From assembly GCA_016839585.1 (NCBI GenBank), contig JAEOTZ010000058.1, forward strand, positions 65,792 to 129,791: 64,000 nt of DNA. Direction: 5' to 3'. This DNA is from Promethearchaeota archaeon (GTDB taxonomy: Archaea; Asgardarchaeota; Lokiarchaeia; Sigyniarchaeales; SOKP01). Shown here in pieces: positions 1,791-50,003 of the stretch (position 1 is its first letter; each line of letters opens with the position of its first letter). Made by a program: the position numbers and the translations under genes. The notes beneath the pieces were generated by a model, which saw nothing but the letters and a program-made list of their open reading frames with translations, made no database searches and was not told the origin of the DNA.

Positions 1791-2699
1791 TTACATAATT
1801 TTATATTTATAAATTATATTATAGACATCCTTGGCAAATTTAGGTTGAAAGCCAAAAATTTTTTGTGGACTAAACGTTAATAATCGAAATTTGACTATTA
1901 TGCTTATATTATAATTTACTATATCAAATTGAGGTTTTATTCGAAAGATGTTCTTTTGATTGTATAAATCACATAGTTCAGCCACTTTATTAATGATTAC
2001 TCGAAATCCTTTATAAGGAAAAGCCATTCTAAAGGTATAGTTATATAACTTTGGATAGTACTTAGTCGAAAAGGATTCGTATGCTTTTTTTAAATTATCT
2101 TCAAATTCTTTTTTAGAATTCGAAATATCTTCATAAATGTCTTTAAAACCAATATCTTGGGGGGCTAAAATTTTGCTTTTGAAATCTTCAAAAGACTTCT
2201 TTTTACCAAGTTTAATTGTATAATTAACGATTTGTGAAGAAAGAACTTTACTATTAGATTTTTCAATTATAATATTATCAAATGTTTCTAATTTCGTTTT
2301 TGTTAAATTAATTTCACGCACAATTCCTTTATCACCTTCAATTTTAACCAAATCTTCAGCTTCAAAAGGTCTTAATAACATCAAAACAATCCCTGAAATA
2401 AAATTTGCGAATATACCGCTAGATGCAAATGCAATCGCAGTGCTAATTGCTCCAGTAAGTGCTGCTAAGTATGGTAGGTTTTCTTCTTTTGTCATTGAAG
2501 GAAACCCTTCAATGACAAAAAATACTATTATAAGTACTGTAACAATTTTTACAACAAAATTTAAGATAGTTTTTTGCTTTAAAGGTATTTTTTTACTTTT
2601 CCCTAATGTTGAAGAATACAACTTATTTATTAGATAGAAACCAGCCATAATAATTAAAAGATATATTAGTGCTTCTAAATCTGAACTAAATATTGCCAT
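1791..2699 (-). CDS. MscS-family mechanosensitive channel
   Basis: N-terminal TM helices are followed by the MscS pore/beta-domain signature ANFISGIVLMLLRPFEAEDLVKIEGDKGIVREINLTKTKLETFDN. Confidence 0.85.
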   Translation of the reverse strand: MAIFSSDLEALIYLLIIMAGFYLINKLYSSTLGKSKKIPLKQKTILNFVVKIVTVLIIVFFVIEGFPSMTKEENLPYLAALTGAISTAIAFASSGIFANFISGIVLMLLRPFEAEDLVKIEGDKGIVREINLTKTKLETFDNIIIEKSNSKVLSSQIVNYTIKLGKKKSFEDFKSKILAPQDIGFKDIYEDISNSKKEFEDNLKKAYESFSTKYYPKLYNYTFRMAFPYKGFRVIINKVAELCDLYNQKNIFRIKPQFDIVNYNISIIVKFRLLTFSPQKIFGFQPKFAKDVYNIIYKYKIM

Positions 2700-2701
2700 T
2701 T

Positions 2702-3637
2702 TTAATCAACCTCTAAGATATTTTTTGACTTATTTGTATCAGAAGAGTTCCATCCATAATTTATATCTGGTTCATAAATTTTAAATAGAAGATCTTTCAA
2801 TAGGGGATCCGTATAGGTTAAGATTAATTTTGGATTCTCTGTGATAATTTGTATGGTAATACTTAATCGATTTGTGATCCCACTGACTGTATTATTTGCA
2901 TAGAAATATGGTCTTGTTCCAAAAATGGGCTCATACTTATCAAATATGGGCACTAATAATTCTTCAAGATTCTCTGGATCTATTGTACCTAAAAGTTCAA
3001 CTACTTTAATATAACGTGTAATTTTTTTTTCTCCAGTTATTAGTTTACCGAATTTTTTTACTACTTCCGAAATGTCTATTTTCTTTTCTTTTTTAATAGG
3101 TTTGTGAGTAAAGCGAACTACTGATGAGTTAAAAGCGTTTTTGTTGGGAATATAAGTAATAGAGCCGTCAAAATCTACTAGTTTCAAACTATTTAATGTT
3201 ACTTCTTTAACAATACCTTCAATTCCATTTGTTTCAATCAAATCACCTGCTTCAAAACCTTCTGATGATAAGAGCAATATCCCTGATGCAATGTTATTAA
3301 TAATATTTTGAAATGTTAAAGATATTGCAACCACTAAAAATGATATAATTGCTACAAATAAAATCGGTGAAATAATGAAAATCAACCAAAATGGAAATAT
3401 TAACCATATTATGTTTATTATTATCATGGTTATATAACGAATGAGTAAATTTTTAATCAAACTATGAAATACATCATTTAATATTGATCTGACTACAAAA
3501 GCAGCCAAATTTAAAAGTATTAAATTCAATAATAATTGCTCAAAGCCAAAATAAAAATAAATCAATACAAAAATTCCTATAACTGACATCCATATGATTA
3601 TTTTATAAATTCTTTTCATACGAAAACATATCTCCAC
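2702..3637 (-). CDS. MscS-family mechanosensitive channel (tandem paralog)
   Basis: Carries IASGILLLSSEGFEAGDLIETNGIEGIVKEVTLNSLKLVDFDGSITYIPN and has a multi-TM N-terminus. It lies 2 nt upstream of the previous gene. Confidence 0.8.
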   Translation of the reverse strand: MEICFRMKRIYKIIIWMSVIGIFVLIYFYFGFEQLLLNLILLNLAAFVVRSILNDVFHSLIKNLLIRYITMIIINIIWLIFPFWLIFIISPILFVAIISFLVVAISLTFQNIINNIASGILLLSSEGFEAGDLIETNGIEGIVKEVTLNSLKLVDFDGSITYIPNKNAFNSSVVRFTHKPIKKEKKIDISEVVKKFGKLITGEKKITRYIKVVELLGTIDPENLEELLVPIFDKYEPIFGTRPYFYANNTVSGITNRLSITIQIITENPKLILTYTDPLLKDLLFKIYEPDINYGWNSSDTNKSKNILEVD

Positions 3638-3756
3638 AGTTTTTTTATATTGAGAATAAAGATTTTATATAAAAAGAATATAAGAAAACTTTTATTTTAA
3701 AAGTTGGTTTATTAAATTATTAGTTAATATTTACTCTATAGTTTAAGTGAGACAAT

Positions 3757-4848
3757 TTGAGAAGATTTTCTAGACCTTCAAGAAAAGCAATTTCTTCAAG
3801 TAAAAAGAAGAAAAAGGTTGGTCTTCCACCAGGAACTCTAATTTATACAGGAGATAAAGTAAAAGAAGAAACTAAAATTAAAATAACAGATTATACTGAA
3901 GATCAATTTAATTTTCAAGAATTTAAGGAAATTCAGATTGATCTTACTAAAATTGAAAAGCCATTAATTAAATGGATTGATATATATGGTCTTGCACAAG
4001 TAAAAGTTATTGAAGAGATTGGGCGTCAATTTAGGTTACATCCTCTTGTTTTAGAAGATATTTTGAGCCCAAATCAACGACCTAAATTGGAAGATTATGG
4101 GAGCTATATTTTTACGGTATTAAAAAAGTTAAGTTGGAATCAAGAACATGAGGATTTTGAATATGAACAAATTAGTTTAATCCTAGGAGAGAATTATGTA
4201 ATATCATTCCAAGAGAGAGATACTAACCTTTTTAATCCCATTTACGAAAGGATTCAAGTTCCTAAAGGAAAAGTTCGATATATGGGCGCAGATTATTTAT
4301 TTTATGTTTTAATTGATATTATAATTGATAATTATTTTATTGTATTAGAAAAGGTAGGCGAAGATATAGAAAATATTGAGGACATTTTGATTAAGAATCC
4401 TGAACCAGAAACTCTGCAACTTATTTATCGATTGAAAAGATCTTCGATTGATTTAAGAAAATCAATTTGGCCAATAAGAGAAATAATCAATAAATTGCAG
4501 CGTGAGCAATCAAATCTAATCAAAGATGAATTGCAAATCTATTTAAGAGATCTATATGATCACATTTTTAGGATCAGTGATCTTTTAGAAAATTATCGGG
4601 ATATCATTTTTGGGATGTTGGATATGTATTTATCAAGTGTTAGCAATAGGATGAATGATATTATGAAAGTTTTAACGATAATATCAACAATTTTCATACC
4701 ATTATCATTTTTAGCAGGTTTTTACGGTATGAACTTCCTTTATATGCCCGAAATATCACAACCAAGTGCATACCCAATCCTAATAACAATAATGGTTGTA
4801 ATAGTTCTTGTCATGGTGTATTTCTTTAAAAGAAAAAAATGGATATAA
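3757..4848 (+). CDS. corA: CorA-type Mg2+/Co2+ transporter
   Basis: Two C-terminal TM helices with the GMN motif (FYGMNFLYMPE), and a typical CorA cytoplasmic domain length. TTG start. Confidence 0.9.
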   Translation: MRRFSRPSRKAISSSKKKKKVGLPPGTLIYTGDKVKEETKIKITDYTEDQFNFQEFKEIQIDLTKIEKPLIKWIDIYGLAQVKVIEEIGRQFRLHPLVLEDILSPNQRPKLEDYGSYIFTVLKKLSWNQEHEDFEYEQISLILGENYVISFQERDTNLFNPIYERIQVPKGKVRYMGADYLFYVLIDIIIDNYFIVLEKVGEDIENIEDILIKNPEPETLQLIYRLKRSSIDLRKSIWPIREIINKLQREQSNLIKDELQIYLRDLYDHIFRISDLLENYRDIIFGMLDMYLSSVSNRMNDIMKVLTIISTIFIPLSFLAGFYGMNFLYMPEISQPSAYPILITIMVVIVLVMVYFFKRKKWI

Positions 4849-4870
4849 AAATCTGTAAAAAATTTTTCTA

Positions 4871-5686
4871 TCAATTAATTTTTTTATGTAAAAGAGGCGT
4901 CCTAATATCTATATTATTTTCCTTACAAGCATCCAATACAGCTTTATGTAAATCAGATTCAATTAGAGGTAAGTCTTTAATATCTTTTATGAAAACATAT
5001 AATCTATATTCAACTGCATAATTCTGGAAGCTATTTATCCAAACATATGGTTTAGGGTCTTTTAATATTTGATGTAATTTATCTACAGCCTTTAATAAAA
5101 CCTCTTCAACTTTATTCCTATCTTCTTCAAATCCAGGTGTTATAGTCACATGTCTTCTGATAATCTCTTTTTTTCCAAAGTCATTAATCTCTTGTGATAA
5201 CATCATTTGATTTGGAACAGAAATCTTAATATTATCAAGGTCAAGCAATGTTGTATATATTAATTTTATTTCAGTAATATCTGCAATTTTTCCGTCATAT
5301 AAGATTCTATCTCCCACAGTAAAAGGTCTACTTACCATTATAATAATACCTGCTATCATATTGCCTAAAGTATTCATAGCAGCAAAACCAATTATGGTGC
5401 CCCCTACAAGAGTAAATAATGCAGTTATAAAGCCTAAACTTTCTGCGAATTGTATGAGAATAGCTGTTAAAATGATAAAAATAATGAGATATTTAATGAC
5501 TTTAGTTATATTGTTTGCGGTATTTAATTCTAACTTCTCATGATCAACAAGGCTCAAAATTTGTCGTCTAAGAAAAAAATAAATAATATATCCTATTAGA
5601 ATAGCTAAGATGGAAACCACAATAGGCAAAAAATAAATGTTTAACCACTCCATAAATAGATCGAGAACATTTAATAAAATCAACAA
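4871..5686 (-). CDS. MscS-family mechanosensitive channel (third copy)
   Basis: Carries GNMIAGIIIMVSRPFTVGDRILYDGKIADITEIKLIYTTLLDLDNIKISVPN. It is convergent with corA. Confidence 0.85.
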   Translation of the reverse strand: MLILLNVLDLFMEWLNIYFLPIVVSILAILIGYIIYFFLRRQILSLVDHEKLELNTANNITKVIKYLIIFIILTAILIQFAESLGFITALFTLVGGTIIGFAAMNTLGNMIAGIIIMVSRPFTVGDRILYDGKIADITEIKLIYTTLLDLDNIKISVPNQMMLSQEINDFGKKEIIRRHVTITPGFEEDRNKVEEVLLKAVDKLHQILKDPKPYVWINSFQNYAVEYRLYVFIKDIKDLPLIESDLHKAVLDACKENNIDIRTPLLHKKIN

Positions 5687-14949: not shown

Positions 14950-15861
14950 TTACATGAGGAAGAAGAATATTAAAGAGATGGTACCCAAAATAATCATTGT
15001 TGCACCCATTCCTCTTCCCATTGCTTTAGCAGATAATCTTTGCACATAATTGGAAACAATAAATCCCGTTAAAAATGAACCAATTCCAAGATAGAGAGTA
15101 AATTCCCAATTATAATAGAATTGATTTTTAATAGTAAAACCTAAAATTTGGTATATTGAAAATGTAAAGAAACACATGAAGATACTTAGTAGTAATGCTG
15201 TACCTACAGACTTCTTTATTGGATACCCATAAAGGATTATTAAAACTAAAGTTATAATCAACCCTGAGCTCGCACCAAACATACCTGAATTGATACCGAC
15301 AAAGAATCCAAGTATGATTGCTAAAAGATAAAATAATCTTGAATAGGGTTTAATAAATCCTTGGATTTGTTCATTTTCAACAGGATCTAATTCTTTAAAA
15401 TTATTTTGACTTTCATTATTTGTTTTGTTTTTTGTAAATCTCTTAATAATATTATTTACTGTTCTCTGAACTGAATCGGATGTAGGAAAACCTTTTCTAA
15501 GAATGGCTAATCCTAAACAAATAATAAATATGGGAATCCCCCAACCAAAAACTGACCCTAAAGGAGTTGTCAGTAATATAAAAACTCCAAAAAAGGCGGC
15601 AATACTGGCAATTAGCATTAAAATTAATATGTCCCGACGGAAATAGAATTGCTTTTTTCGGGTATAATTAAAGCCTACTGCGATTGCTGCTATTAAATCA
15701 TTTAAAACACTGATTGCTATTGCTAGAAAAAGATCTCCAGAAATTATTAAAATAAGAGGGACAACGACACCTTGCCCCGTCTGACCAATAAAGCTCATCG
15801 AAATTCCTACAAGTGCTCCAATAAAAATAAGAAAAATTATCTGATAAATTTCTAAGACCAA
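14950..15861 (-). CDS. TauE/SafE-type (DUF81) anion exporter-like membrane protein
   Basis: A 4+4 TM layout with a hydrophilic central loop. TTG start. Confidence 0.5.
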   Translation of the reverse strand: MVLEIYQIIFLIFIGALVGISMSFIGQTGQGVVVPLILIISGDLFLAIAISVLNDLIAAIAVGFNYTRKKQFYFRRDILILMLIASIAAFFGVFILLTTPLGSVFGWGIPIFIICLGLAILRKGFPTSDSVQRTVNNIIKRFTKNKTNNESQNNFKELDPVENEQIQGFIKPYSRLFYLLAIILGFFVGINSGMFGASSGLIITLVLIILYGYPIKKSVGTALLLSIFMCFFTFSIYQILGFTIKNQFYYNWEFTLYLGIGSFLTGFIVSNYVQRLSAKAMGRGMGATMIILGTISLIFFFLM

Positions 15862-16041: not shown

Positions 16042-19000
16042 TTATCTTGTGCTTTGAATAAATAGCTGGTCCTTTTTGTGCTCTTTCTCCCATTTTTTAC
16101 GTTCTGAACGTAGCTTGAATAATTCTATATCTTTAAAGATCAAACCTTCTTCTTTTGCAGGTACAATTCGCTCAGTTCGATCCTTTTCCGGTGTATAGAT
16201 TTGGGATTCTCCAAATTCACCAATATTTGCAAAAAAACAATATGCATATATAGATCTACGTGCATCAAAATGAGCTGCTTTAAAATCGGCTGTGACTGGT
16301 GTAAAAGCGGGATTCAGAATTATATCAATCGGGGGTTCGAAATTTTTTAACTCCACTCTTAAATCCATGTCAAGAAAGTCTCGACAAATAGCAATAGCGA
16401 TTCTCCCATATTCTGTATTACAAATGATTGTTTTTCTTGGTAAGCTACTAACATCTATTCCTTCCTTAAAACGATTTCCTTCTCCAAAACTAATAATTGC
16501 AGGAATATGCTTTTCTTGTTCCCAAAGAATCCCTTCGGGCCCGAAAACCATGCAAATGTTCCTTTTTGTTTCTTGGTCATGAAAGGAACCTGGTATTATG
16601 TACATCTCGTATAATTTGGCTAAATCTGCTATCTCTCCGAGACATTGCCCATAATTGAGGTCAATTGTCATTTCTGGGAATAGGAGGATATTGATTCCCT
16701 CTTTATGTGCTCTTTCAATCATTTTTTTAACATTAAATCTGACAGTATTAATCTTATCTTCTCTAAGATTTAAAATACCTGAAGCTCTCATTTCATAAAG
16801 TTCATTCATAATGTCTCCACTCTTAGAAACTCCTATTTGAGCAATACCAACTCTACATTCTCTTTTTTGAACTTTCGGATATTCTTTAACCAAATCTTTA
16901 TAGATAAGTTCATACTTTTTTCGTTCTATTCTCTCCATAGTAACTCGAAGTTCTTCTTCAGTGAACTGACGAGCTTCCCCTAGTCTAGGAGATTGGCTGC
17001 TTTCAATAGGGCAAGAAGGAGCAACTATACCTACAGTACTTCGAGAGATTGATGGTTCTTTTATAGTACTTAAAGCAGAAAAAAGAATGGATTCTTCCTT
17101 CTCTACTCGGTTTAATCTGTCTTGAACCTCAACAACTTTATTTCTATAACCCGCTTTGCTAAATAATTCTAAAGATGACTTTAAATAATTAGATCCAATA
17201 CCTAATAACCTTCCTTTTTCAGTAAAATCTAGTTCTTTATCAGCTTGGATTAAGTGCCAAGCAGCATCAAAATAAATCGAAGAAGCTAAAGCCCAATTTG
17301 CTACATTTTCAAAACCACTTTTACCATAAGAGGAAGCTGCTTTACTTAGCATCAATTTCACTTTAGGATATAAATTCATCTTTATACCAATATCCATGGA
17401 TTCATCAAATTTACAGCTTAACTCAAGAGCTTGGCAAAATGCTGAATTACCTGAAGCTAATAACTTTAACTTCATGTCAACAAAGAGTTCACTAGCTTTT
17501 GTAAATAAATTTGCAGCATAATCAAACCTTTCTGGTTCTTCAAATTTTTCTGCAAGTTCCATACTTTCCCACGCTCGACATAGATAATATATAGCTTCAA
17601 GCTCCTTTCTTTCTCTCTCCAACTTATATCGTGTGCAAACACCTCTAAATACAGAAGCGGCGATCCCGAATTTTTCTGCTGCTGTGGAATGTTCTCCTTT
17701 CTTCCCTAACATTATCGCTTCTTCTAGATTTATTCTAGCAGAACAATAATCAATTCTTACTTCTGCGACCTTTTCAAGCTTTTCTATTCGTTCTTTTTCT
17801 GGTTGCTCTGTAGTTTTCACTAAAGCCTCCTTTAGGATGTGTATAGTTTCTTCGAAAGCTTGTATTGTATGTTTATACTGTTTTATAGCTTCCTCTCTTT
17901 TTTCCTGCTTACTTAATAATTCTGCTTCCTCTAACATTGCCCAAGCTGCATTATAAAATCCCTCAAAATTATATTTAGGAATTTTTTTCAAAATTTCACT
18001 TGCATTTTCGTAACACTCCTTTGCTTTCAAGTGGTCTTCATTTTTATGATATGCTTTAGATTTTTCAATTAGATTCCAAGCATTAGCATATTTTATCTTC
18101 TCCCTAACTCTTTCTCTAAGTGGCCTATATTCAATACTTTTTAATGATTCTGAGTGATTTTTTTCGGCTTTCATATAATTCTCAGCAGAAGAAGTGTGGT
18201 TACCGAGTCGATCCTCTAGGCGTGCGATGTATTCATATGTTGTACCTGCATAAGAATAATAACCTTTCTCAAGACTTCCTTTAATAGCATCAAGCAATAA
18301 CTCTTTTGCCTCTAATAATCTTTCATTATTTTTAGTTAAAATACCTATCTCTTCATAGAGAAAGGCTAACCTCATTTGAGCAGCTATAATGCCTGAGCGA
18401 GACTCTGAAGCATGCTTTAAATAATTTCTAGATGCATCAGCTGCAGATAACAACATTTCAACTCTTTTTTCTTTTTTTTCTGAAACTTCGGCTAAGGTTT
18501 TATAAGCTCTATTGAGACAATTGTAAGTAAATGCTTGAACTTGCCCTCCTCCATATTTATCCCCAATCCTTTTAATTTCATTTGCATAATGGAACATGTG
18601 TTCAATGTTTGTATCTCGCTCTTCTTTTGTTTCAGAAAAACGAACCAACACAGCATAGCTAATGGTGAGGGATAAAAATGAGAATGAATTTGATATATCA
18701 TTTACACTACAATCTAAAGTTCTCAATGCATATTCAACCCCTTTTTCTGCATAAGATTTTCTTTGATTTGGTGTAAAAAAGCTTAATTGGGCAACATTGG
18801 AATAATAAAATGCTGGTAAATGATTCGAATAAAAATAGGACGCTTGCATCATCCCTAATGGGAATTGTATTATATTCCCTGCGTCCCTAATCTCCTTAAT
18901 GTCGTTAATAATTCTTTTTTGTAGATACATAAATTTACCGCTAATAAAGGCATATTCATTTATCAAATAGAGACTCCAAACAATCATAATTTTGTTTTTA

Positions 19001-19899
19001 ACTTTTCTTGCTAAATCTAAACCCATCTCAAGATATTTTATTCCTTTTTCAAAATAATTTCTCTGCTCTATTTCATCATCAATATGTTTATATCCATACT
19101 CAGAGTTTATAAAGCCATATGTATGGTATAAAATGGTAAGAACTAAGGGATTATTATATGGTGTAAGAAACTTAATACTTTCTTCACACTTATAAATAAT
19201 GTCTTTAAAAGTTTCTATCGATTGTCTCTCCCGTTTGAAATCTTCAATAATAGTTAGTATTTGTACAATCGTACACTCAATATAAAGGGAAAAAACAATA
19301 TCGTACATATTTCTACTTTCCATTGAAAGTTTCCAAATTTTTCCACTTAATTCAATGGTTCTTTTTACAATTTTCTTTAATTCTACTGGCTCCTTACAGA
19401 AATTTGCATAATTAAACAATGCAAACACGTTAATTATTCTTAACTCGTTTACAATCCTAGGAGGAACTTGCTCATCATTTTTTTTTGAATATCTCTCAAG
19501 CAAGTTAGAACTTAGCTCTAGAGCTTTATTAGCCATTCTCTCTGCTTCTTCAACAGTATCTGCTGTGAAACATTTATAACAGGTCGAAATTGCTTCTAAT
19601 TCCAATCTTTCAAGTTCAAATCCATTCTTTTTACAGAGTCTTGCTCCTTCTTCAAAGAGTTTAACATAATCCTTTAATAATTCCATATATTCTTCTGCTG
19701 TTTTGACTGAACTCTCCAAATAACCATAATATAATTTAATCAAATCATGAAAAATTTCCCTTGCTTTTACTCCTTCTTTTTTATCACTATAAGATTTTGC
19801 AGCTTGATAATAGAGCTTTGCTGCATTCAAAAAATTGTAATTTCTCTCTTCCTCTCGTGCCTTTTCTACTAGGGATACTTCACTTTCCTCTGAAGTCAT
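16042..19899 (-). CDS. 1285-aa fusion of TPR-like helical repeats (~residues 1-950) with a C-terminal carbon-nitrogen hydrolase (nitrilase superfamily) domain
   Basis: The C-terminal ~270 aa (nt ~16100-16866) carry an E-K-C triad context: ILLFPEMT, EQEKHIP and RIAIAICRDF (Cys codon 16384-16386). The N-terminus is a long array of paired helices rich in A/Y/L/E/K. Confidence 0.7.
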   Translation of the reverse strand: MTSEESEVSLVEKAREEERNYNFLNAAKLYYQAAKSYSDKKEGVKAREIFHDLIKLYYGYLESSVKTAEEYMELLKDYVKLFEEGARLCKKNGFELERLELEAISTCYKCFTADTVEEAERMANKALELSSNLLERYSKKNDEQVPPRIVNELRIINVFALFNYANFCKEPVELKKIVKRTIELSGKIWKLSMESRNMYDIVFSLYIECTIVQILTIIEDFKRERQSIETFKDIIYKCEESIKFLTPYNNPLVLTILYHTYGFINSEYGYKHIDDEIEQRNYFEKGIKYLEMGLDLARKVKNKIMIVWSLYLINEYAFISGKFMYLQKRIINDIKEIRDAGNIIQFPLGMMQASYFYSNHLPAFYYSNVAQLSFFTPNQRKSYAEKGVEYALRTLDCSVNDISNSFSFLSLTISYAVLVRFSETKEERDTNIEHMFHYANEIKRIGDKYGGGQVQAFTYNCLNRAYKTLAEVSEKKEKRVEMLLSAADASRNYLKHASESRSGIIAAQMRLAFLYEEIGILTKNNERLLEAKELLLDAIKGSLEKGYYSYAGTTYEYIARLEDRLGNHTSSAENYMKAEKNHSESLKSIEYRPLRERVREKIKYANAWNLIEKSKAYHKNEDHLKAKECYENASEILKKIPKYNFEGFYNAAWAMLEEAELLSKQEKREEAIKQYKHTIQAFEETIHILKEALVKTTEQPEKERIEKLEKVAEVRIDYCSARINLEEAIMLGKKGEHSTAAEKFGIAASVFRGVCTRYKLERERKELEAIYYLCRAWESMELAEKFEEPERFDYAANLFTKASELFVDMKLKLLASGNSAFCQALELSCKFDESMDIGIKMNLYPKVKLMLSKAASSYGKSGFENVANWALASSIYFDAAWHLIQADKELDFTEKGRLLGIGSNYLKSSLELFSKAGYRNKVVEVQDRLNRVEKEESILFSALSTIKEPSISRSTVGIVAPSCPIESSQSPRLGEARQFTEEELRVTMERIERKKYELIYKDLVKEYPKVQKRECRVGIAQIGVSKSGDIMNELYEMRASGILNLREDKINTVRFNVKKMIERAHKEGINILLFPEMTIDLNYGQCLGEIADLAKLYEMYIIPGSFHDQETKRNICMVFGPEGILWEQEKHIPAIISFGEGNRFKEGIDVSSLPRKTIICNTEYGRIAIAICRDFLDMDLRVELKNFEPPIDIILNPAFTPVTADFKAAHFDARRSIYAYCFFANIGEFGESQIYTPEKDRTERIVPAKEEGLIFKDIELFKLRSERKKWEKEHKKDQLFIQSTR

Positions 19900-20132: not shown

Positions 20133-22256
20133 ATGGATGTACCATTCATATTAATTGTTGCCTTAATCGCAGGAATAATCTCCATAGCAATGGCTTTATA
20201 CTTTAGATTCTTAGTTTTAAAAGAGGATCCTGGAAATGAGAGAATGCAAGAAGTAGCAGGATACATTGAAGAGGGAGCAAAAACATACCTTAAAGTTCAG
20301 TATAAGATTTTAGGACTATTTGTGGGAGTTCTTGCAATTGCTTTGTTATTTTTACCTTCTCCCTTGAAAGATAGCACTACGTATACAAGAATTTTTGAGG
20401 ATGCATTAAATTGGGAGCAAATGGTTGCTTATCTAATTGGTGCTGTAGGTTCAATGATGGCTGGTTGGCTAGGAATGTATGTTGGTGTGAAGGCAAACAC
20501 CAGAGCAGCTCAAGGATGTACTATAAGCACAAAAAAAGGTTTTGACATCGCATTTTTCGGAGGTGCCGTTATGGGACTTGCCGTAGTTGGTGTTGCTTTG
20601 ATTGGGGTCTCAACCTTATATTGGATTGTGCCAGATCCAATGATAGTACTAGGATTTAGTTTTGGTGCGAGTAGTGTAGCACTATTTATGAAATGTGGTG
20701 GAGGAATTTATACCAAAACGGCTGATGTTGGAGCAGATTTAGTTGGGAAAGCAGAATATAACCTTCCTGAAGATGATCCACGCAATCCCGCTACTATAGC
20801 AGATAATGTAGGAGATAATGTGGGTGATATTGCAGGGATGGGAAGTGATCTGTTCGATTCTTATGTTGCGTCAATTATAGCAGCAATGATGTTAGCTGCA
20901 ACATTACCCTTTCTAGATATTAATTTGTCAGAATATGGAAGATTCATTTATACAATTTACCCAGTTATGTTATGTGCTGCTGGTTTATTATCATCTCTTA
21001 TTGGTATTTATATAATAAAGCGGACTGGATCTGATGAACCAGGTAAAGCTTTGAACACTGGAACATACTTATCAACATTAATATTTGCAGCATTGGCTAT
21101 TCTGTTTACTCTAATAATGGTTATAGGGTTAAATGGAGAAGAAACAACAATGTTGTGGAAATTATCTGCATGTTCTATTATTGGTCTACTTGCTGGTATC
21201 GTGCTTGGCTTTACAAGTGATTACTTCACAAGAGCCGATAGAAAGCCAACAAGAAAGATGGCGGAAGCTGCGCAAGAAGGACACGCTGTAGTTATACTCA
21301 GTGGCTTTTCCTATGGATTACTAAGTGTAATTCCTGCTGCTCTAGGGATCGTGCTTGCAATGGTATTCACTTATCTGTTAGCTGAGGTTTTTGGAGTTGC
21401 AATGGCAGCTGTAGGAATGTTAGCTATTGTAGGAACTATTGTTTCTAATGATGCATATGGTCCTATTGTAGACAATGCTAGAGCTATTGCAGAACAAGGA
21501 GACCTTGGAGAAGATGTAATACGTATAGCGGATCGATTGGATTCAGCAGGAAACACTGCTAAAGCTATTACCAAAGGATTTGCTATAGGAGCAGCAAATT
21601 TAACTGTTCTTGCTTTACTCTTTTCCTATGCTACAGAAGCTAATGATATAAATCCAGGTACAATTGCAGTTATGGATCTATTAAACCTAAATATATTAAT
21701 AGGCGCTTTTATAGGAGTTGTTGTACCTGCACTATTCTCTGCTTTATTAATTCTTGCCGTGCAAAGAAATGCAGCAATAATGGTTGATGAAATAAGAAGA
21801 CAATTTGAATCAAATCCTAAAATATTAACTGGTGAGGAAGCAGCTGATTTTAGTAAGACAATCGATATTGCAACTAAAGGTTCGCTAAAAGAATTAATAT
21901 TACCAAGCATTATTTCAATCACCGTTCCTGTTTCAGTAGGAATAATATTCGGGGTATCAGCATTAGGTGCATTCTTAGCAGGTGCAATCTTATCTGGTTT
22001 TGTTTTTGCTATTATGATGTCTAATGCTGGTGGAGCATGGGATAATGCTAAAAAATGGATAGAGGATGGAAATCTTGGAGGAAAAGGTACTGAAGTGCAT
22101 AAAGCATCAATTACGGGAGATACGGTTGGAGACCCATTTAAAGACACTGCAGGTCCAAGTATTAACACCTTATTGGTTGTAATGTCATTAACTGCATCAA
22201 TTTTCCTTGGATTCTTAATGCTTTTTGGTAATGGAGCAGGATTAATATCTTTCTAA
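20133..22256 (+). CDS. hppA: Membrane-integral H+-translocating pyrophosphatase, K+-independent type
   Basis: Carries GGGIYTKTADVGADLVGK, DNVGDNVGD and GDTVGDPFKDTAGPSINTL. SAGNTAKAITKGFAIG has Lys and Thr at the positions diagnostic for K+ independence. Confidence 0.95.
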   Translation: MDVPFILIVALIAGIISIAMALYFRFLVLKEDPGNERMQEVAGYIEEGAKTYLKVQYKILGLFVGVLAIALLFLPSPLKDSTTYTRIFEDALNWEQMVAYLIGAVGSMMAGWLGMYVGVKANTRAAQGCTISTKKGFDIAFFGGAVMGLAVVGVALIGVSTLYWIVPDPMIVLGFSFGASSVALFMKCGGGIYTKTADVGADLVGKAEYNLPEDDPRNPATIADNVGDNVGDIAGMGSDLFDSYVASIIAAMMLAATLPFLDINLSEYGRFIYTIYPVMLCAAGLLSSLIGIYIIKRTGSDEPGKALNTGTYLSTLIFAALAILFTLIMVIGLNGEETTMLWKLSACSIIGLLAGIVLGFTSDYFTRADRKPTRKMAEAAQEGHAVVILSGFSYGLLSVIPAALGIVLAMVFTYLLAEVFGVAMAAVGMLAIVGTIVSNDAYGPIVDNARAIAEQGDLGEDVIRIADRLDSAGNTAKAITKGFAIGAANLTVLALLFSYATEANDINPGTIAVMDLLNLNILIGAFIGVVVPALFSALLILAVQRNAAIMVDEIRRQFESNPKILTGEEAADFSKTIDIATKGSLKELILPSIISITVPVSVGIIFGVSALGAFLAGAILSGFVFAIMMSNAGGAWDNAKKWIEDGNLGGKGTEVHKASITGDTVGDPFKDTAGPSINTLLVVMSLTASIFLGFLMLFGNGAGLISF

Positions 22257-22370: not shown

Positions 22371-22697
22371 GACGAGTGAGATATGGAGCTGACGGTGGGT
22401 ATATCCTGCTGAGGAACCTCGCCCCACTCTCCAAGCAAGGAGTAGAGAACTACTACGGTGAGAACCGTATTTTAGCTACTGAAACGGTACTGCCTTCTTA
22501 CAGATATTAATGATTTGGATATAAGCTAATGAAATTGTAGGAAGGAATGGTTGAAACGAGCTAAAACCTTGGTGCAAGGCCAAATGAAAGCTATGAGTAT
22601 TTTGGAGCGAGCTTTAGGTAGGCCGCTTAGTTTGATGCTCCAACTGCTCTCCGGTGACGGAAACAGTACAGAAGGGCGAGTATATATCTCAAGCGTC
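22371..22697 (+). ncRNA. rnpB: RNase P RNA
   Basis: A GC-enriched ~327-nt island with no ORF. The terminal P1 stem is GACGAGUGAGAUAU / AUAUCUCAAGCGUC. There is a CR-I-like GAGGAACCUCGCCCC whose CUCGCCC pairs with the GGGCGAG of a CR-V-like ACAGAAGGGCGAG (P4). GUGCAAGGCCAAAUGAAAG matches the universally conserved AGCAAGGCCAAAUAGG region. Confidence 0.82.
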
Positions 22698-23599: not shown

Positions 23600-24475
23600 T
23601 TAGTAATTATCTTTTTTAGGATAACCACAGACAGAACATTTCCAGTCTTGAGGTAAATCTACTTTTTCTTCATTTCCACATTCTAAGCATACCCAAGTAG
23701 CTTTTTCTCTTTTGGAAACTGAAATTCGTTCTTCTTTTGCTTTAGAGGGTTTTCGCTTAAAATATTCTTTAGAACGTTTACAAGATGGGCACTTCCAATT
23801 TTCTGGTAATTTATCCAATAATACTTCAAATCCACACTCCATGCAAATCCAAATCGTTTTTTCCTTCTTTTTTAGTAAAAGATCTTGATTAGTTAAATCA
23901 AAAATTTCTTTTTTAAAGTATAATTTAAGATGACCACAAACAGGACAACTGAAATCTTCCTCTAATTCGTCAGTCGTTGTTTCATATCCACATTCCATAC
24001 ATTTCCAAACAATAATTTTATTCTTCTGAAATATTATATTATCTTGTAGCAATTTTGAAAGAGTTCTAAAACGATATAGATAATTTCTTTTAATTTGGGA
24101 AATCTCTTTTAATCTAATTGCTATATCAGTATATCCTTCCTTATCCGTAATATTAATAATGTCGCGGTATATTGGAATTCCATTATATTCGACTTCTTTA
24201 ATAGCTGATTCCAAATTTTCACCAGTTGTACCATAAGTAATAGGACTATCAATTTCTACCTTTACATTTTCAATAAGCTCTTCCTTTTTGAATTGTTCTA
24301 ACATAAAAAAAATCGAATATGCATTTTCCTTTACTTGCTCAGCAATTTCTATAAAAGTTGTAGAAATTAAAGGAAGTTCCTCTTTTTGTGCGATTATAGC
24401 AAAAATCTCATACTTAGTCCTCTCTTGGGCTTCATGTATAAAAGCTTTCATTAAATTTATAGCAGTATTTTTCAT
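23600..24475 (-). CDS. Rubrerythrin-fold protein with a degenerate di-iron site and three C-terminal rubredoxin-like zinc/iron ribbons
   Basis: The N-terminal four-helix region aligns to rubrerythrin (NLMKAFIHEAQERTKY...). It is followed by three modules W.C.ECG...(W/F).CP.C (WKCMECG..FSCPVCG, WICMECG..WKCPSCK, WVCLECG..WKCSVCG). Confidence 0.7.
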   Translation of the reverse strand: MKNTAINLMKAFIHEAQERTKYEIFAIIAQKEELPLISTTFIEIAEQVKENAYSIFFMLEQFKKEELIENVKVEIDSPITYGTTGENLESAIKEVEYNGIPIYRDIINITDKEGYTDIAIRLKEISQIKRNYLYRFRTLSKLLQDNIIFQKNKIIVWKCMECGYETTTDELEEDFSCPVCGHLKLYFKKEIFDLTNQDLLLKKKEKTIWICMECGFEVLLDKLPENWKCPSCKRSKEYFKRKPSKAKEERISVSKREKATWVCLECGNEEKVDLPQDWKCSVCGYPKKDNY

Positions 24476-27200: not shown

Positions 27201-29315
27201 TTACTTCTTATTTACCTTTTTTATTAGTATTATAGAAATTGCGAATATTGCGCCAAATAAAATTAGTACGTTGTATCCAGGAATTAGAGGAGAACCATCG
27301 CTAGGAGATTGGCTAGACCATCTTAAATCATATTCATTTCCTGCATCGCCCCAACAAATTAAAAGATAGTAGGTTCCACTCGAAGGAACAATAGTGTTAA
27401 CGGTTTCATTATCAGTAGTAGACCAACCTGCCGTTATTAAAGTAAGAGAGGCGTCATAAACATCAATGTCAATATCTCCCGCTGCGTGAGAAAAAGTGAG
27501 CTCTATTCTCAAATGCTCATTTCCTTCTGTAATATAAATTTCATACCAGTCATCATCCGCCTGAACACCAAGTCCATCAATCGTACTCAGCCATATTCCT
27601 TCATAGGATGAAAGATCATACGCTTGAGTATAATCGTTATTTGGTTCATAATTATCATCAGTGGGACCTGTAGATAGTATATCATCCCACCATAAATCAT
27701 ATTCATTACCTAGATTCCCATAATAAACTAAAAGATAGTAGGTACCACTCGAAGGGACAATATAGTTGATATATTCATTATCAGTAACAGACCAACTTCC
27801 CGTTATTAAAGTAAGAGAGGTGTCATAAACATCAAGGTCAATATCACCCTCACTATGAGTAAAAGTCAAATCTACTACCAAGCGTTCATATCCAGGAGTA
27901 ATATAAATTTCATACCAATCTTCATCTGACTGAAATCCAGGTCCATCAATCGTACTCAGCCATGTTTGTTCGTCTGATGAAAGGTCATACGCCTGTGTAT
28001 AATCGTCATTTTCTTCATAATTATCATCTGGGAGATTAGCATAATAAGTTAATAGAAATTCATCCCATGACAAATCAGCAGTGAAATTTAATATTGTTTC
28101 ATAATTACTATCGTAATCCCCGATATTTCCTGGATAATAAATGGTAGTTCCATGAAAACCTGGATGGTAAGATCCATGTGCTTCAGCTATCGTCATTGAA
28201 TTAATAGCATTCATAATATCTTGTGCAGCATTCTGAATAACAGTATCTGAAATTCGATTATAAATTTGATATGAAAAATTGTATAAATCAACATAAGTTA
28301 AATCATAATATGATGCATCACTCGACCCTCTAGCAGCTCGTATATCAGTTATATACGTGCCAATTTTAGAGGTTAATTCTAGTGCTAGTGATTCGATTGC
28401 GGTCGATAAAGTACTTTCTTGTAATAGATCTACAGCCGATAAAGTTTCAATACCATCAGTGCCATAATATTCGATGTACCTATTTACTATTGTGCTTCCA
28501 GTAGAATTTGGACTCATAGTTGGAGTGCTTGTTAAATCACTTAGAATTGTGTCATAAGGCCATCCGTCTAATGGTATAACTTCCTCAGAAGCGACGCGTA
28601 CTTGTGCTAAATTTCTTAGTTGGTAGTCGATTTCTACATTTGCCATTAAACAGGCATCAAAACCAAGTACGTCAATATATACTCCTGCTGTAGAAAGAGC
28701 GATTTCTACTTCTTGGATTGTAAGATGATCAAAATTAGTGTCATCATAACATACGCCTTTAAAGAGGGGATCATTTTTTTCTTCATGCCCTTTCCAACCA
28801 GCTCCATGATCCCATAACACTAATGCATAATGGTCTGATGGATAATTTGCAACACCCCAAGTAATAAAATTAGAAAGGGTAGATGACAGTCCCATATTTT
28901 GTTCCCCCAGATCAGATAAGGCATTAGCTGCAGCTGGAGTCATTCCTGGAATGATATAAAATCTTTTTGTTGTTACCCAGTTATCGTAAGATGTGTCATA
29001 TCCTGAAATTCTATCAAATTGTACAACAATATGAATATTAGCATCTGAACCAACAGACGACATTTCTAAAAAGTCACTAATACCATCAGCTTCTAGGTTA
29101 TTATCTGCATCTAAATAGACCAAAAAAGTCCAGTCATTTGGAGATTTACCATTAGTATTCACTATTTTATCTTCTTGAATCAATTGTTCATTTAAATTTC
29201 CAACGGTTCCGTATACTATCGTTGCTACAATATTAAAAATAAGAAGTAATACTAAATATTTTACAATTTTTTTATAGATTTTTGCTGATTTTATAAGATA
29301 ATTATTGTACTTCAA
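27201..29315 (-). CDS. Secreted, membrane-anchored clostripain-like (peptidase family C11) cysteine protease with two PPC-type C-terminal domains
   Basis: It has an N-terminal signal/TM helix. The motifs are WTFLVYLDADNNLE and LWDHGAGW (His) and LGFDACLM (Cys). Two ~123-aa repeats (DDNYE.N.DYTQAYDLSS...DWYEIYIT...GDID.DVYD...SGTYYLL) follow. The C-terminus PGYNVLILFGAIFAISIILIKKVNKK resembles a PGF-CTERM-type anchor. Confidence 0.8.
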   Translation of the reverse strand: MKYNNYLIKSAKIYKKIVKYLVLLLIFNIVATIVYGTVGNLNEQLIQEDKIVNTNGKSPNDWTFLVYLDADNNLEADGISDFLEMSSVGSDANIHIVVQFDRISGYDTSYDNWVTTKRFYIIPGMTPAAANALSDLGEQNMGLSSTLSNFITWGVANYPSDHYALVLWDHGAGWKGHEEKNDPLFKGVCYDDTNFDHLTIQEVEIALSTAGVYIDVLGFDACLMANVEIDYQLRNLAQVRVASEEVIPLDGWPYDTILSDLTSTPTMSPNSTGSTIVNRYIEYYGTDGIETLSAVDLLQESTLSTAIESLALELTSKIGTYITDIRAARGSSDASYYDLTYVDLYNFSYQIYNRISDTVIQNAAQDIMNAINSMTIAEAHGSYHPGFHGTTIYYPGNIGDYDSNYETILNFTADLSWDEFLLTYYANLPDDNYEENDDYTQAYDLSSDEQTWLSTIDGPGFQSDEDWYEIYITPGYERLVVDLTFTHSEGDIDLDVYDTSLTLITGSWSVTDNEYINYIVPSSGTYYLLVYYGNLGNEYDLWWDDILSTGPTDDNYEPNNDYTQAYDLSSYEGIWLSTIDGLGVQADDDWYEIYITEGNEHLRIELTFSHAAGDIDIDVYDASLTLITAGWSTTDNETVNTIVPSSGTYYLLICWGDAGNEYDLRWSSQSPSDGSPLIPGYNVLILFGAIFAISIILIKKVNKK
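27317..28028 (-). repeat. Tandem intragenic duplication (2 x ~369 nt) encoding the two PPC-like domains
   Basis: Unit 1 is ~27683-28028 and unit 2 is ~27317-27659. Long identical peptide runs (DYTQAYDLSS, VPSSGTYYLL, GNEYDL) are visible in the DNA as well. Confidence 0.8.
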
Positions 29316-32412: not shown

Positions 32413-33546
32413 CTATTTGTTTAATTCTCTAAATTTCAATAAGAGTTCTTTTTGTCTATCAGATATTTTTTCAGGTACTTTAATATTCACTATGACATAA
32501 TGATCTCCCCTTTCTTTTCCCCGTAGATAAGTAGCTCCGCTTTTTTTAATTCGAAATTCTGTTCCAGGCTGAGTTCCCGGTGGGATTGTCAACTCTTTTT
32601 CTGTCATTTTCTTTTCTTTATAATCTAAAGTAGGAACCTTGATTTTCCCACCTAAAATTGCAGTTATAATATCCAAATCTATTGGAGTATAAAGATCATA
32701 ACCACGACGAATAAACTTTTCATTCTCTTTAATTTTAATCCCTAAATAAAGATCACCAGGAATAGCATTTACAGAAGGTACATGACCAGCACCTTGAACT
32801 TTCAAATGAACTCCATTTTCTATACCAGGTGGTATATTAACATGTATAGTTTTATGATCAGGAACTACCTTTTTCCCATTACACATCTTACACTTCTTTT
32901 TAATTACTTTACCTGTACCATTACAAGCATAGCATTCTGACTCACGAATAATAGTACCAAATCCAGACTGCGTCATTTTCCTAATTCGACCCGTTCCTTG
33001 ACACTCTGGGCAATTAGTGATACTTGATGGATCTTCAGCCCCTGTTCCTTCACAGGCGTCACAAGGAGTATATCGTTCTATTGGGACATCTTTTTTTACT
33101 CCAAACATAGCCTCTTCAAAACTAATTTCTAAGAAATCTTCTATATCTTGTCCGACTTCTCGACGTGGTGCAGTTCTTCTTCTAGCTCTTGAACCAAAAC
33201 CACTAAAACCAAAATCATCAAACCCTCCAAATGGACTAAATTCACCAAAGATGCTTCGAAATAACTCATCGATACCTGGTATTCCACCACGGAAAAAATC
33301 ACTCATATCTATTTCTACTCCACTAAAACCGAAGCGATCATAATTTTTCCTCTTATCAGGATCATTTAATACTTCATAAGCTTCTTGGAGTTCGATAAAT
33401 TTTTCTTTTGCTTTAGGATCCGTTTTGTTCATATCTGGATGAAGTTCCTTAGCTAATCTACGATATGCTAGTTTGATATCATTCTGGGAAGCATCTTTAC
33501 TTACACCCAATACCTCATAGTAATCTCTTTTTTTGCTGGAACTCAT
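32413..33546 (-). CDS. dnaJ: Chaperone DnaJ (type I Hsp40)
   Basis: A J-domain with HPD, a G/F-rich linker, and four CxxCxG motifs ([32 protein letters not shown]). Confidence 0.95.
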
Positions 33547-33756
33547 AATCTCTTAGATTCTTGTTGTTATCGAATAAGGTTAAAAATCAAGTAATTAAAA
33601 TTGTTTCTGGAATTTAATTTTTTAGGTTATTAAGTAAATTAATATATGAAATTTTTATAAATCAAATCTCTTCTCAATTTAATTGATATAGTTTTATTAA
33701 TTTAATAAAAAAAAAATAATAAAACCTTATATATAACATTAACTTATCTAAATTCT

Positions 33757-34296
33757 ATGGAATCTAATGAAATTGAAATAACTGAAAACCTTAAAATTAG
33801 ATATTATGTAGTCTCCGGTTGCATAGTAGTTCTCTTTATTATACTTACTGTATTGTTTAGTCAATTCTCAGGCAAAGCATTGTTATATTCTCTAATGATT
33901 GAGGGAATTTTGGCGGCAATTATAGCTCCTCTTATGATTTACGCCTATTCTAGAAACAAATGGGTAACATATGCTTTATCAGAACAAAAATTTATGATTG
34001 TAAAGCCAAAAAAGATTCGCTTTGAAATTAGCTGGTCGGAATTTGATGTAATAAAATTTAAACTATTAGGGAGTGAGTTTGGCACACTTAAAGGTAGAAA
34101 GCTGGAAAGGAAAACCAATGTATTTAAACTTAAATTTTTACGCGGAAATGATCAAATTAAAGATATAAAATTCGCTGTCCTCAGTAGAGCTAAAGCGAGA
34201 GAACTAGGTGCGGCAATAATTAATTATGCAAAAAATATGGGCAAAGATATCATCTTAAAACAGCGTGATATACAACTAAGAAATCTAGATGTTTGA
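33757..34296 (+). CDS. Membrane protein of unknown function, inserted antisense between dnaK and dnaJ
   Basis: 179 aa with two N-terminal TM helices and a beta-rich C-terminal domain. Confidence 0.5.
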   Translation: MESNEIEITENLKIRYYVVSGCIVVLFIILTVLFSQFSGKALLYSLMIEGILAAIIAPLMIYAYSRNKWVTYALSEQKFMIVKPKKIRFEISWSEFDVIKFKLLGSEFGTLKGRKLERKTNVFKLKFLRGNDQIKDIKFAVLSRAKARELGAAIINYAKNMGKDIILKQRDIQLRNLDV

Positions 34297-34471
34297 GATT
34301 TTTTGATTATTAAGTTTAATATTATTAAATAGAAGCTAGAATTAGATAATGTAATTTTATTTAATGATCAAATAAGTCCTTTTTTTTTTAAAAAAATAAT
34401 TGTAAAAAAAAGAGGTTTATTCTCTTTCTTAAATAATTAATAAGATTTTTGTTTATATTAATTAACACTAC

Positions 34472-36496: not shown

Positions 36497-36530
36497 AGTT
36501 AAAATATCACTTTTTCTTAGAATTTTGGAT

Positions 36531-36581
36531 ACTTAATAATTTAATCTTCAAAGATTTTTTAGACTTTAATAATTTAATCTT
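36531..36581. promoter_or_regulatory. Direct repeat ACTT(T)AATAATTTAATCTT x2 in the dnaK-grpE divergent promoter region (candidate operator)
   Basis: The copies are at 36531-36548 and 36563-36581. They are identical apart from one extra T, and the start-to-start spacing is 32 nt. Confidence 0.3.
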
Positions 36582-36745
36582 TATAAAATTGTAAATTGTT
36601 CCTATTAAGTATATATTAATTAAAATAGAATTAAAAATTTTATTTATATAGATCGCTATATCATAAAAAATAAAATTGATTATCAATTTTAAATCATAAA
36701 ATTATAATTCATATAACATTCTAAAGAATTATAAAGGGAGCTGTT

Positions 36746-40519: not shown

Positions 40520-40920
40520 TATCTTTTCAAATTATTTTTGACAAATTCAACGATTGTTTTTAATTCAGTACCAGGACCGTGAAATCCTTTCAATCCATGT
40601 TTCTCTAAAAATGGTTTATCTTCATCAGGTATAATTCCACCAACAGCAACCAGAACATCATCTATTCCTTGTTCTTTTAACTTTTCCATAATTAATGGAC
40701 ATAGTGCATTATGAGCACCACTTAACATTGATAACATCACGGCGTCAGGATCTTCTTGAATGACGGTGTTTACAATATCTTCAGGGGTTTGGTGAATACC
40801 TGTATAAATAACTTCCATACCCGCATCCCTTAAGGCTCTAGCGAGGACTTTTGCCCCTCGATCATGTCCATTTAAGCCTGGTTTGCAAACTAAAACTTTA
40901 ATTTTTCTTTTTTCTACCAT
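40519..40920 (-). CDS. Methylmalonyl-CoA mutase B12-binding (small) subunit
   Basis: 133 aa. KPGLNGHDRGAKVLARALRDAGMEVIYTG is present, and SMLSGAH and GGIIP follow. The Asp of DxHxxG is Asn (AAT, 40870-40872). Confidence 0.9.
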   Translation of the reverse strand: MVEKRKIKVLVCKPGLNGHDRGAKVLARALRDAGMEVIYTGIHQTPEDIVNTVIQEDPDAVMLSMLSGAHNALCPLIMEKLKEQGIDDVLVAVGGIIPDEDKPFLEKHGLKGFHGPGTELKTIVEFVKNNLKR

Positions 40921-40933
40921 AGTTTATACCCTA

Positions 40934-49811: not shown

Positions 49812-50003
49812 AAAATCACTTTAAATTTGAATTAAATTTAATGGTTCTTTTAATTAAACATCATTATTTCAATTCTAGTTTAATTATATAGGTTAAATAA
49901 ATCTTAAAAATAAAATCATTTTTGATGTATATATTAGAAAAGAGATAAATGTATAATTAAAACTAATAATATCATACACAAACCTGTGAAAATGGTCTAT
50001 TAA

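Follow-up and report, generated by a model that had tools for sequence, protein, structure and literature searches.

Introduction

Nitrilases have only just been recognised as effectors in prokaryotic immunity, the described cases being DRT1, UG5 and CARF-nitrilase (PMC13275509). In DRT1 the nitrilase is the effector, needs tetramerisation for activity, makes all of the contacts within the tetramer and has a conserved C-terminal tail that covers a neighbouring active site and gates the enzyme, and its substrate was still unidentified according to the DRT1 study of 2026 (PMC13275509). In class 3 UG/Abi reverse transcriptases (RTs), an alpha-helical repeat domain is accompanied by either a nitrilase or a phosphohydrolase (PMC13275509). 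We report here on a gene in a stretch of 64,000 nucleotides from a Promethearchaeota archaeon (contig JAEOTZ010000058.1; this whole stretch is called the window below, and positions are counted from its first letter unless a locus is named), which encodes a protein of 1285 amino acids (aa) that carries the same kind of effector on a different chassis, without RT, CARF or NTPase domains. A TPR-like helical scaffold of about 950 residues is followed by a conserved linker and a C-terminal nitrilase cassette, and the protein belongs to a large archaeal family in which other modules may stand in place of the nitrilase. The reading that we favour, with a probability of about 0.45, is that of a single-polypeptide sensor or adaptor joined to an effector, in which the N-terminal solenoid would bind a partner and control an oligomerisation-dependent amidohydrolase, likely in a setting of conflict or stress.

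Architecture of the protein

The coding sequence (16042..19899, minus strand) is complete and uninterrupted, with an ATG start that matches the N-termini of the homologues and 1285 codons before the stop. Against three orthologues it gives a ratio of nonsynonymous to synonymous substitutions (dN/dS, obtained here and below by the simple Nei-Gojobori method, in an AT-rich genome) of about 0.2, and it is therefore a functional coding sequence under purifying selection. In an AlphaFold2 model of residues 1-1010, built from a 43-sequence alignment (local confidence score, pLDDT, 85.6; predicted template modelling score, pTM, 0.77), residues 7-947 form 37 helices and no strands, stacked as antiparallel hairpins into a solenoid whose last helix ends at residue 947. 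The helices have a mean length of 22 residues, or about 25 with their loops, and the hairpins of about 51 residues differ from the canonical 34-residue repeat of the TPR profiles; the only TPR match in Pfam, TPR_12 at residues 613-684, scores 25.3 bits, below the threshold of 30.1. On the model, 'TPR-like' is the accurate term for the solenoid, rather than a string of canonical 34-residue TPRs. The best Foldseek matches in the PDB are TPR scaffolds, namely Ctr9, the IFT-A TPR subunits, Ski3, separase, TTC7 and the APC/C TPR subunits, with good E-values, yet with template modelling (TM) scores of 0.2-0.3 and identities of 10-13%, because of which the resemblance to giant TPR scaffolds is generic to the fold class. 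Size and an all-helical hairpin solenoid are what the window protein has in common with Ctr9, Ski3, IFT-A, separase and the APC/C subunits, none of which carries such an enzyme domain.

The cassette (residues 985-1285; 16045..16947, minus strand, as are all parts of the protein given below), which begins with a KKYELIYKDL lead-in, was delimited by fold match, PADLOC models and its identity across scaffolds. Its AlphaFold2 model, of moderate confidence (pLDDT 74, pTM 0.80), adopts the alpha-beta-beta-alpha sandwich of the nitrilase (carbon-nitrogen, or CN, hydrolase) superfamily; mouse Nit2 (2w1v) is the best Foldseek match (E=3e-13, TM 0.65-0.70), 149 PDB chains match at E<=1e-3, and the best 50 matches listed are all nitrilase-superfamily enzymes. 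The complete catalytic tetrad is present and invariant in 66 homologous sequences: Glu1076 in a canonical strand-PE motif (LLFPE; 16672..16674, codon checked), Lys1130 (EQEKHIP; 16510..16512), a second Glu, Glu1146 (16462..16464), aligned with the Glu of the 'FQES' motif of Nit2, and the nucleophile Cys1172 (IAICRDF; 16384..16386), which aligns with the Cys of both Nit2 and DRT1, the Lys also aligning with that of Nit2. The motifs LLFPEMT, EQEKHIP and IAICRDF begin at residues 1072, 1127 and 1169. From sequence, the nitrilase module is predicted to be catalytically intact and competent. Pfam CN_hydrolase (PF00795) scores the window protein at 18.1 bits (E=1.8e-3), below its gathering threshold of 23.2, so the assignment draws on the match in fold, on the invariance of the tetrad and on the homologous proteins, most of which have a precomputed PF00795 match, with one member from Bathyarchaeota (P0291) above threshold at 27.2 bits. 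No NCBIfam model matches the 1285-aa protein. Both halves of the architecture proposed in the initial annotation, a giant TPR-like repeat region of about 950 residues and a C-terminal CN hydrolase with a Glu-Lys-Cys context, are thereby borne out, the former by the 37-helix solenoid and the Foldseek matches to TPR scaffolds and the latter by the Nit2-type fold and the invariant tetrad.

The invariance of the four catalytic residues, in the 66 sequences and across phyla, bears on whether the domain need be an enzyme at all. It could be that the nitrilase fold only oligomerises or forms filaments, joining TPR arms into a structural lattice, since nitrilase-fold proteins do form dimers, tetramers and helical filaments, the contacts in DRT1 are made via the nitrilase domains (PMC13275509), and conservation in the protein is highest here in the C-terminal elements that are prone to form interfaces. 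A purely structural role would not be expected to preserve a complete tetrad in this way, however, and we hold such a non-enzymatic assembly protein to be extremely improbable.

When scored against sequence models, the cassette does much better against those of defence-associated nitrilases, RT-associated or CARF-fused, than against the generic Pfam CN_hydrolase. The PADLOC model RTasNitrilase, which is the best profile match of the window cassette and marks it as the RT-associated type, matches residues 1010-1264 at E=2.7e-11 and paralogues down to 2e-14, and the cassette of family member P0094 matches the CARF-nitrilase (CARF_m7--CARF_nitrilase) and RT_UG5-nitrilase models at 7e-14 and 9e-12, respectively. 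Among solved structures, a PDB profile search with the cassette gave Nit2 (1.5e-4), beta-ureidopropionase (3e-3) and DRT1 (0.017), and the C-terminal half alone had DRT1 (9yfd) as its top sequence match, a weak one (E=0.19); Nta1 and Lnt were absent from the PDB profile matches at E<=1 and from the 50 listed Foldseek matches.

The Nit2/Nit1 branch (omega-amidase) is thus the best solved relative in both structure and sequence, with an alignable tetrad, although identity is about 18%, the Nit proteins are compact (about 280 aa) and without a scaffold, and the window cassette additionally has a lead-in of 45 aa and a C-terminal tail that is invariant. From these matches, to Nit2 omega-amidase, beta-ureidopropionase and N-carbamoylputrescine amidohydrolase, and from the metabolic genes that surround the locus, one could suppose that the domain is a small-molecule amidase of the Nit-like metabolite-repair or nitrogen-salvage kind, tethered to the scaffold merely for localisation or complex assembly. 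Such an enzyme, however, would have no need for up to five tandem paralogues of 1280 aa, nor for an exchange with TIR, phosphoesterase or zinc-finger modules; compact nitrilases are the rule for metabolism, and the cassette forms a clade of its own, very conserved and only weakly recognised by generic CN_hydrolase models. We therefore regard this explanation as distinctly unlikely.

The extreme C-terminal end of the cassette, FIQSTR (residues 1280-1285; 16045..16062), is invariant in the 66 sequences as well as in the Bathyarchaeota cassette, and by analogy with the C-terminal lid of DRT1 (PMC13275509) we propose it as a candidate inter-subunit 'lid' tail.

The scaffold itself falls into a fast-evolving N-terminal third (residues 1-400; 18700..19899), which is the proposed specificity or recognition region, and a conserved part (residues 401-947; 17059..18699) that holds the TPR_12 match; the stretch common to the distant Bathyarchaeota branch of the family, described below, covers residues ~460-967. 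Several candidate domains within it were considered and set aside. The sole Walker-A-like string of the protein, AASSYGKS at residue 854, lies inside a solenoid helix of the model; Pfam matches to RasGEF, RNase III-like and TPPII_C (E=0.02-0.9) were treated as helical-repeat noise; and the PADLOC matches to KwaA and Cas11f, weak and situated in helical regions, were discounted. A weak likeness to MIT is seen in residues 5-77, with PDB profile matches to MIT (Vps4) at E ~0.01 and Pfam MIT matched by two of 29 family members, and an N-terminal Vps4-like MIT domain is not claimed, the matches being marginal and MIT itself being TPR-like.

Exchange of the C-terminal module

Between scaffold and cassette lies the linker (residues 948-984, EPSISRSTVGIVAPSCPIESSQSPRLGEARQFTEEEL; 16948..17058), which is conserved, predicted to be disordered (pLDDT <50 for residues 948-979) and situated at the very junction at which modules are exchanged. 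Its motif, EKEE.IL.SALNTIK.PSIS.ST.GI.AP.CP.E.SQSPRL, is kept in 167 distinct family sequences with every class of tail and is recognisable also in the distant Bathyarchaeota branch. A census of the 175 distinct tails found after the linker gave 145 nitrilases, ten Cys/His-rich zinc fingers with no significant Pfam match, eight TIR domains (TIR_2, E=1.4e-15), five calcineurin-like phosphoesterases (metallophosphoesterases; E=2.4e-12), three copies of an unassigned domain, about 150 aa long, that Pfam does not recognise, and one beta-sandwich with a possible winged helix-turn-helix, a suggestion that found no support; the three others were short or incomplete and fall outside these classes. The C-terminal module is thus swappable on a common scaffold and linker. 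In the Bathyarchaeota branch a beta-sandwich follows the scaffold, and is itself followed by nothing (about 1100 aa in all), by a KaiC-like ATPase (about 1310 aa) or by a nitrilase (about 1380-1426 aa).

The nitrilase cassette in turn occurs on different carriers. Cassettes from the window and from Bathyarchaeota are 66-67% identical, including the KKYE.IYKDL lead-in and the FIQSTR end, as against about 25-30% for the scaffolds, and the cassette is found at 59-64% identity also on proteins of 890 aa whose TPR array is of the unrelated MalT type. Present on Asgard, Bathyarchaeota and MalT-type scaffolds, the cassette thus behaves as a conserved mobile unit that has been combined with at least three scaffolds.

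The proteins with other tails deserve a description of their own. In the zinc-finger paralogue group (about 1070-1090 aa) a pattern C-x2-H ... C-x2-C-x2-C-x-C-x2-C-x10-C-x2-C takes the place of the nitrilase, and the gene is often the last of its array (L006 8001-11213 and L003 13002-16181; also in L071, L074, L079, L082 and L083). An assignment of this finger to the ZZ or RING type was not retained other than as a lead, the best matches, p62 ZZ (E=0.6) and Rtf2 RING (E=0.065), both being non-significant. The tails of about 150 aa (L054 683-4066, L069 9995-13375 and L077 9839-13312) look by eye like longin or roadblock-type domains, a likeness that has no Pfam or PDB support and was dropped. 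The KaiC-like ATPase tail (DUF7504) of the Bathyarchaeota branch occurs in proteins P0096-P0098 and P0385-P0486, and at L089 8808-9896 a stand-alone KaiC-like gene immediately precedes a scaffold-nitrilase gene.

Selection along the protein

The two ends of the protein evolve at very different rates. In comparisons with orthologues, residues 1-400 have a dN/dS of 0.34-0.57 and residues 601-1285 one of 0.10-0.15, the N-terminal 400 residues thus evolving three to four times faster than the rest (dN/dS ~0.4 vs ~0.1). Column identity across the family is 0.29-0.44 in residues 1-400 (0.29-0.39 in residues 50-350), rises to 0.5-0.7 in residues 450-950 and reaches >=0.8 in residues 1150-1285. The N-terminal third is therefore the diversifying, paralogue-specific part of the protein and the cassette its constant part.

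Family size, paralogues and loci

In a scan that took one representative genome for each species of archaea or bacteria, at least 212 scaffold copies were confirmed. The best 80 of the 212 genome matches were inspected, copy numbers being lower bounds, and gave 78 loci, all from metagenome-assembled genomes (MAGs) of Asgard archaea and several with 4-6 copies; taxon labels here are those of the MAG records. Named homologues are likewise all Asgard (Promethearchaeota/Lokiarchaeota, Hermod-, Hod-, Thor- and Heimdallarchaeota). When the scaffold by itself was searched with HMMER against the full database, it gave 459 clusters at 50% identity, 260 of them at E<=1e-30, including a distant branch, 25-33% identical, whose attached names are Bathyarchaeota. 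The 124 distinct full-length sequences of the nitrilase type fall into at least 11 multi-member paralogue groups, with identities of 70-87% within and 48-59% between groups, from which the groups are ancient, each of them conserved across genomes.

Tandem arrays of 2-5 scaffold genes are frequent, and one Hermodarchaeota contig carries four scaffold-nitrilase genes followed by one scaffold-zinc-finger gene. At the locus of the window, relatives keep the order GlnA - Band7 - rubrerythrin - LCM methyltransferase - hppA / array / TauE, with one to three scaffold copies: a single one in the window (group 'F'), G-F in the closest species representative and F-F'-G in another relative, which points to copy-number turnover at a fixed locus. 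In the window itself the gene is separated by 233 bp from the divergent H+-pyrophosphatase gene hppA (20133..22256; Pfam H_PPase, E=2e-228) and by 180 bp from a TauE-family gene downstream (14950..15861), and its neighbours are housekeeping or metabolic genes.

A search for a conserved partner gene was negative, since the recurrences seem to reflect the conserved gene order of a single chromosomal region and not a partner within an operon. An S-adenosylmethionine (SAM)-dependent methyltransferase of about 363 aa (NodS/Methyltransf_23-like), absent from the window, lies beside or inside arrays in 14 of 53 long loci (for example L001 2674-3765, L003 11990-12979, L004 12011-13114, L008 23068-23843, L011 16004-17068 and L012 8256-9344), and UbiA, radical-SAM, p130 and MT252 genes each occur near arrays in 11-13 of the 53.

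The literature yielded no published description of the family or of its architecture; one paper treats 'nitrilases' of Heimdallarchaeia as metabolic enzymes, with no mention of a scaffold-nitrilase architecture, and database names are generic ('carbon-nitrogen hydrolase family protein', 'predicted amidohydrolase/TPR repeat protein'). TPR scaffolds and nitrilase effectors of the defence type, with modules that can be swapped, are both of a known kind, and it is their combination that is undescribed, new points being the lack of an RT, CARF or NTPase domain, the Asgard and Bathyarchaeota range and the arrays of ancient paralogues. The initial annotation, which had called the gene solitary and knew of no characterised protein like it, needs to be amended accordingly: the spacings and the single copy in the window are as it described, but relatives hold two or three tandem copies at the same locus, and a protein for which no description could be found nevertheless belongs to a populous family, which with its 459 scaffold clusters is common without being characterised. 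The survey of distribution and neighbourhoods that it proposed has placed the gene in a large multi-copy Asgard family with a Bathyarchaeota branch and housekeeping surroundings.

A possible sensor or adaptor with an enzymatic effector

We propose that the fast-evolving N-terminal third of the solenoid would bind a partner, either a protein or another macromolecule, and that binding would shift the way in which the protein assembles. The nitrilase domains could then turn active upon formation of an oligomer, as do other nitrilases, with the invariant FIQSTR tail completing or gating a neighbouring active site, and the active enzyme would hydrolyse an amide or nitrile-type bond in a probably abundant cellular molecule. 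Paralogues, often encoded side by side, may recognise different partners while using the same chemistry, and the most likely role would be in a conflict, immune or stress response. What we count in favour of this proposal are the nitrilase fold with its invariant tetrad, the scores against defence-type nitrilases, the swapping of modules, the N-terminal selection gradient and the tandem paralogues. The data establish the architecture, the complete tetrad, the exchange of modules, the pattern of paralogy, the gradient of selection and the range of taxa; the binding of a partner, the activation upon oligomerisation, the tail as a lid and the role in conflict are inferences from them.

Of the described systems, DRT1 and the class 3 UG/Abi RTs (PDB 9yfd) are the most instructive. 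As in those, a complete-tetrad nitrilase stands C-terminal to a region of helical repeats; the very end of the C-terminal tail is kept, as in DRT1, and sister proteins carry a phosphoesterase in place of the nitrilase, as the phosphohydrolase does in class 3 UG/Abi RTs. These parallels, i.e. the invariant tail, the alternation of nitrilase and phosphoesterase and the adjacent helical repeat, are suggestive analogies. Unlike DRT1, the window protein has no RT domain by Pfam, NCBIfam or PADLOC, its first 950 aa being all-helical; the repeat region of about 950 aa is unrelated in sequence, the family is archaeal rather than bacterial, and there is no indication of DNA adducts or filaments. STAND, Avs and NLR-like proteins offer a second comparison, as they too combine, in one polypeptide, a large TPR sensor-like array with an enzymatic effector that can be exchanged (TIR, phosphoesterase or another), occur as multi-paralogue clusters and have one faster-evolving end. 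The window protein differs from them in having no NACHT, NB-ARC or other P-loop switch (Pfam, PADLOC and model), in its C-terminal position of the effector and in its housekeeping gene context. With the CARF-nitrilase proteins it has a related type of nitrilase in common, but no CARF sensor was found in the window protein and no CRISPR-cas genes nearby.

Several observations weigh against the proposal that these proteins are conflict or stress effectors. All neighbourhoods inspected, in Asgard archaea and Bathyarchaeota, consist of core housekeeping genes at conserved chromosomal positions, with no defence islands or mobile elements, a context that speaks against classic defence islands. The groups of paralogues are of ancient origin and well conserved, unlike what would be expected of a rapid arms-race turnover, and some of the alternative tails (zinc finger, ~150-aa domain, KaiC) are no obvious toxins. 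Similarity to DRT1 itself is weak (E=0.017-0.19), the linker is not docked confidently on the solenoid in the AlphaFold2 model, and Pfam, NCBIfam and PADLOC gave no significant NTPase or other known switch or embedded domain in the scaffold. No viral copies of scaffold or cassette were found in IMG/VR; a viral origin was considered and rejected, BFVD having given a generic cyanophage CN hydrolase only.

The same context, with its syntenic housekeeping genes and its ancient, conserved paralogue groups, could also be read as that of a protein-directed amidase or deamidase hub in normal proteostasis or regulation. The solenoid would then recruit protein or peptide substrates and the nitrilase would deamidate Asn or Gln side chains or N-termini, or remove an acyl or peptide-like modification, with the paralogues serving different client sets. 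TPR solenoids as large as this one are protein-binding scaffolds in the PDB (Ctr9, Ski3, IFT-A, APC/C and the OGT TPRs), and the nitrilase superfamily does have members directed at proteins or lipoproteins, such as Nta1 and Lnt. To these one may add the Cys/His-rich finger of the sister paralogue, whose best PDB match is the p62 ZZ domain, and the ubiquitin-like E1/E2/JAB cluster directly upstream of the array in three related loci. However, no specific similarity to Nta1 or Lnt was seen and the closest relatives with solved structures have small-molecule substrates, TIR and phosphoesterase tails on a common scaffold fit poorly with such a function, the ZZ similarity is non-significant, and the E1/E2/JAB adjacency is limited to three of the 53 long loci. 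Taken as a whole, an amidase hub is a possibility that we consider unlikely. Of the functions put forward in the initial annotation, a protein- or polymer-directed amidase or acyltransferase by analogy with Nta1 and Lnt, or else a regulated effector, it is the last that agrees best with the module swapping and the defence-type nitrilase scores, whereas specific support for the Nta1/Lnt analogy was not obtained.

A bolder variant would be an Asgard/Bathyarchaeota protein-targeting system akin in its logic to the eukaryotic N-degron and ubiquitin pathways, in which TPR adaptors present clients to a nitrilase protein amidase and to the ZZ/RING-like paralogue at the array end, sometimes beside E1/E2/JAB, as a pre-eukaryotic form of amidation-dependent protein marking; we think this very improbable.

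As for the E1/E2/JAB genes themselves, L002 5384-7394 holds a cluster of E2 (UQ_con), E1 (ThiF) and JAB deubiquitinase-like genes, immediately upstream of an array of three scaffold-nitrilase genes and on the strand opposite to it. Such clusters adjoin arrays in L002/L028, L032 and L085, and the adjacency may be coincidental synteny.

If, as we favour, these proteins do couple a sensor to an effector, they would represent a pattern-recognition architecture that works without an NTPase, with ancient paralogue clusters and TIR-bearing siblings. Eukaryotes have their closest known relatives in the Asgard archaea, and the chassis resembles the large TPR scaffolds typical of eukaryotic complexes; the proposal would thus bear on the origin of eukaryotic innate immunity. 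Should a housekeeping function turn out to be the true one, the family would instead amount to a major enzyme system, specific to its lineage and hitherto unrecognised. In both cases, hundreds of proteins of 1,100-1,400 aa labelled 'carbon-nitrogen hydrolase family protein' or 'hypothetical' would gain a modular anatomy, and the cassette of residues 985-1285, small and very conserved, would be open to biochemical tests.

Other features of the window

No tRNA genes were found in or beside the 1285-aa gene, and the sole Rfam match there is the archaeal RNase P RNA (RF00373, 135.8 bits, E=6e-38) at 22373-22695 on the plus strand, between hppA and the LCM-family methyltransferase gene, which marks the window as archaeal. 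The rubrerythrin encoded at 23600-24475 (minus strand) carries two or three added rubredoxin or zinc-ribbon-like modules (RUBY_RBDX x2, DUF7130, Rubredoxin), and the extended gene is also kept in the syntenic loci L008 and L009. Further along the window are a 704-aa clostripain-family protease (Peptidase_C11, E=2e-58) with a PPC pre-peptidase domain (27201-29315, minus strand) and a bacterial-type DnaJ - DnaK - GrpE cluster (32413-37588), in which an open reading frame of 179 aa (33757-34296) lies between the DnaJ and DnaK genes. On the other side of the gene, at 1791-5686, a CorA Mg2+ transporter gene (3757-4848) is flanked by genes for MscS-like channels (1791-2699, 2702-3637 and 4871-5686). 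The window also holds a MeaB / methylmalonyl-CoA mutase pair at 39527-42568 and, at 48348-51464, two divergent B12-binding radical-SAM genes of 487 and 486 aa.

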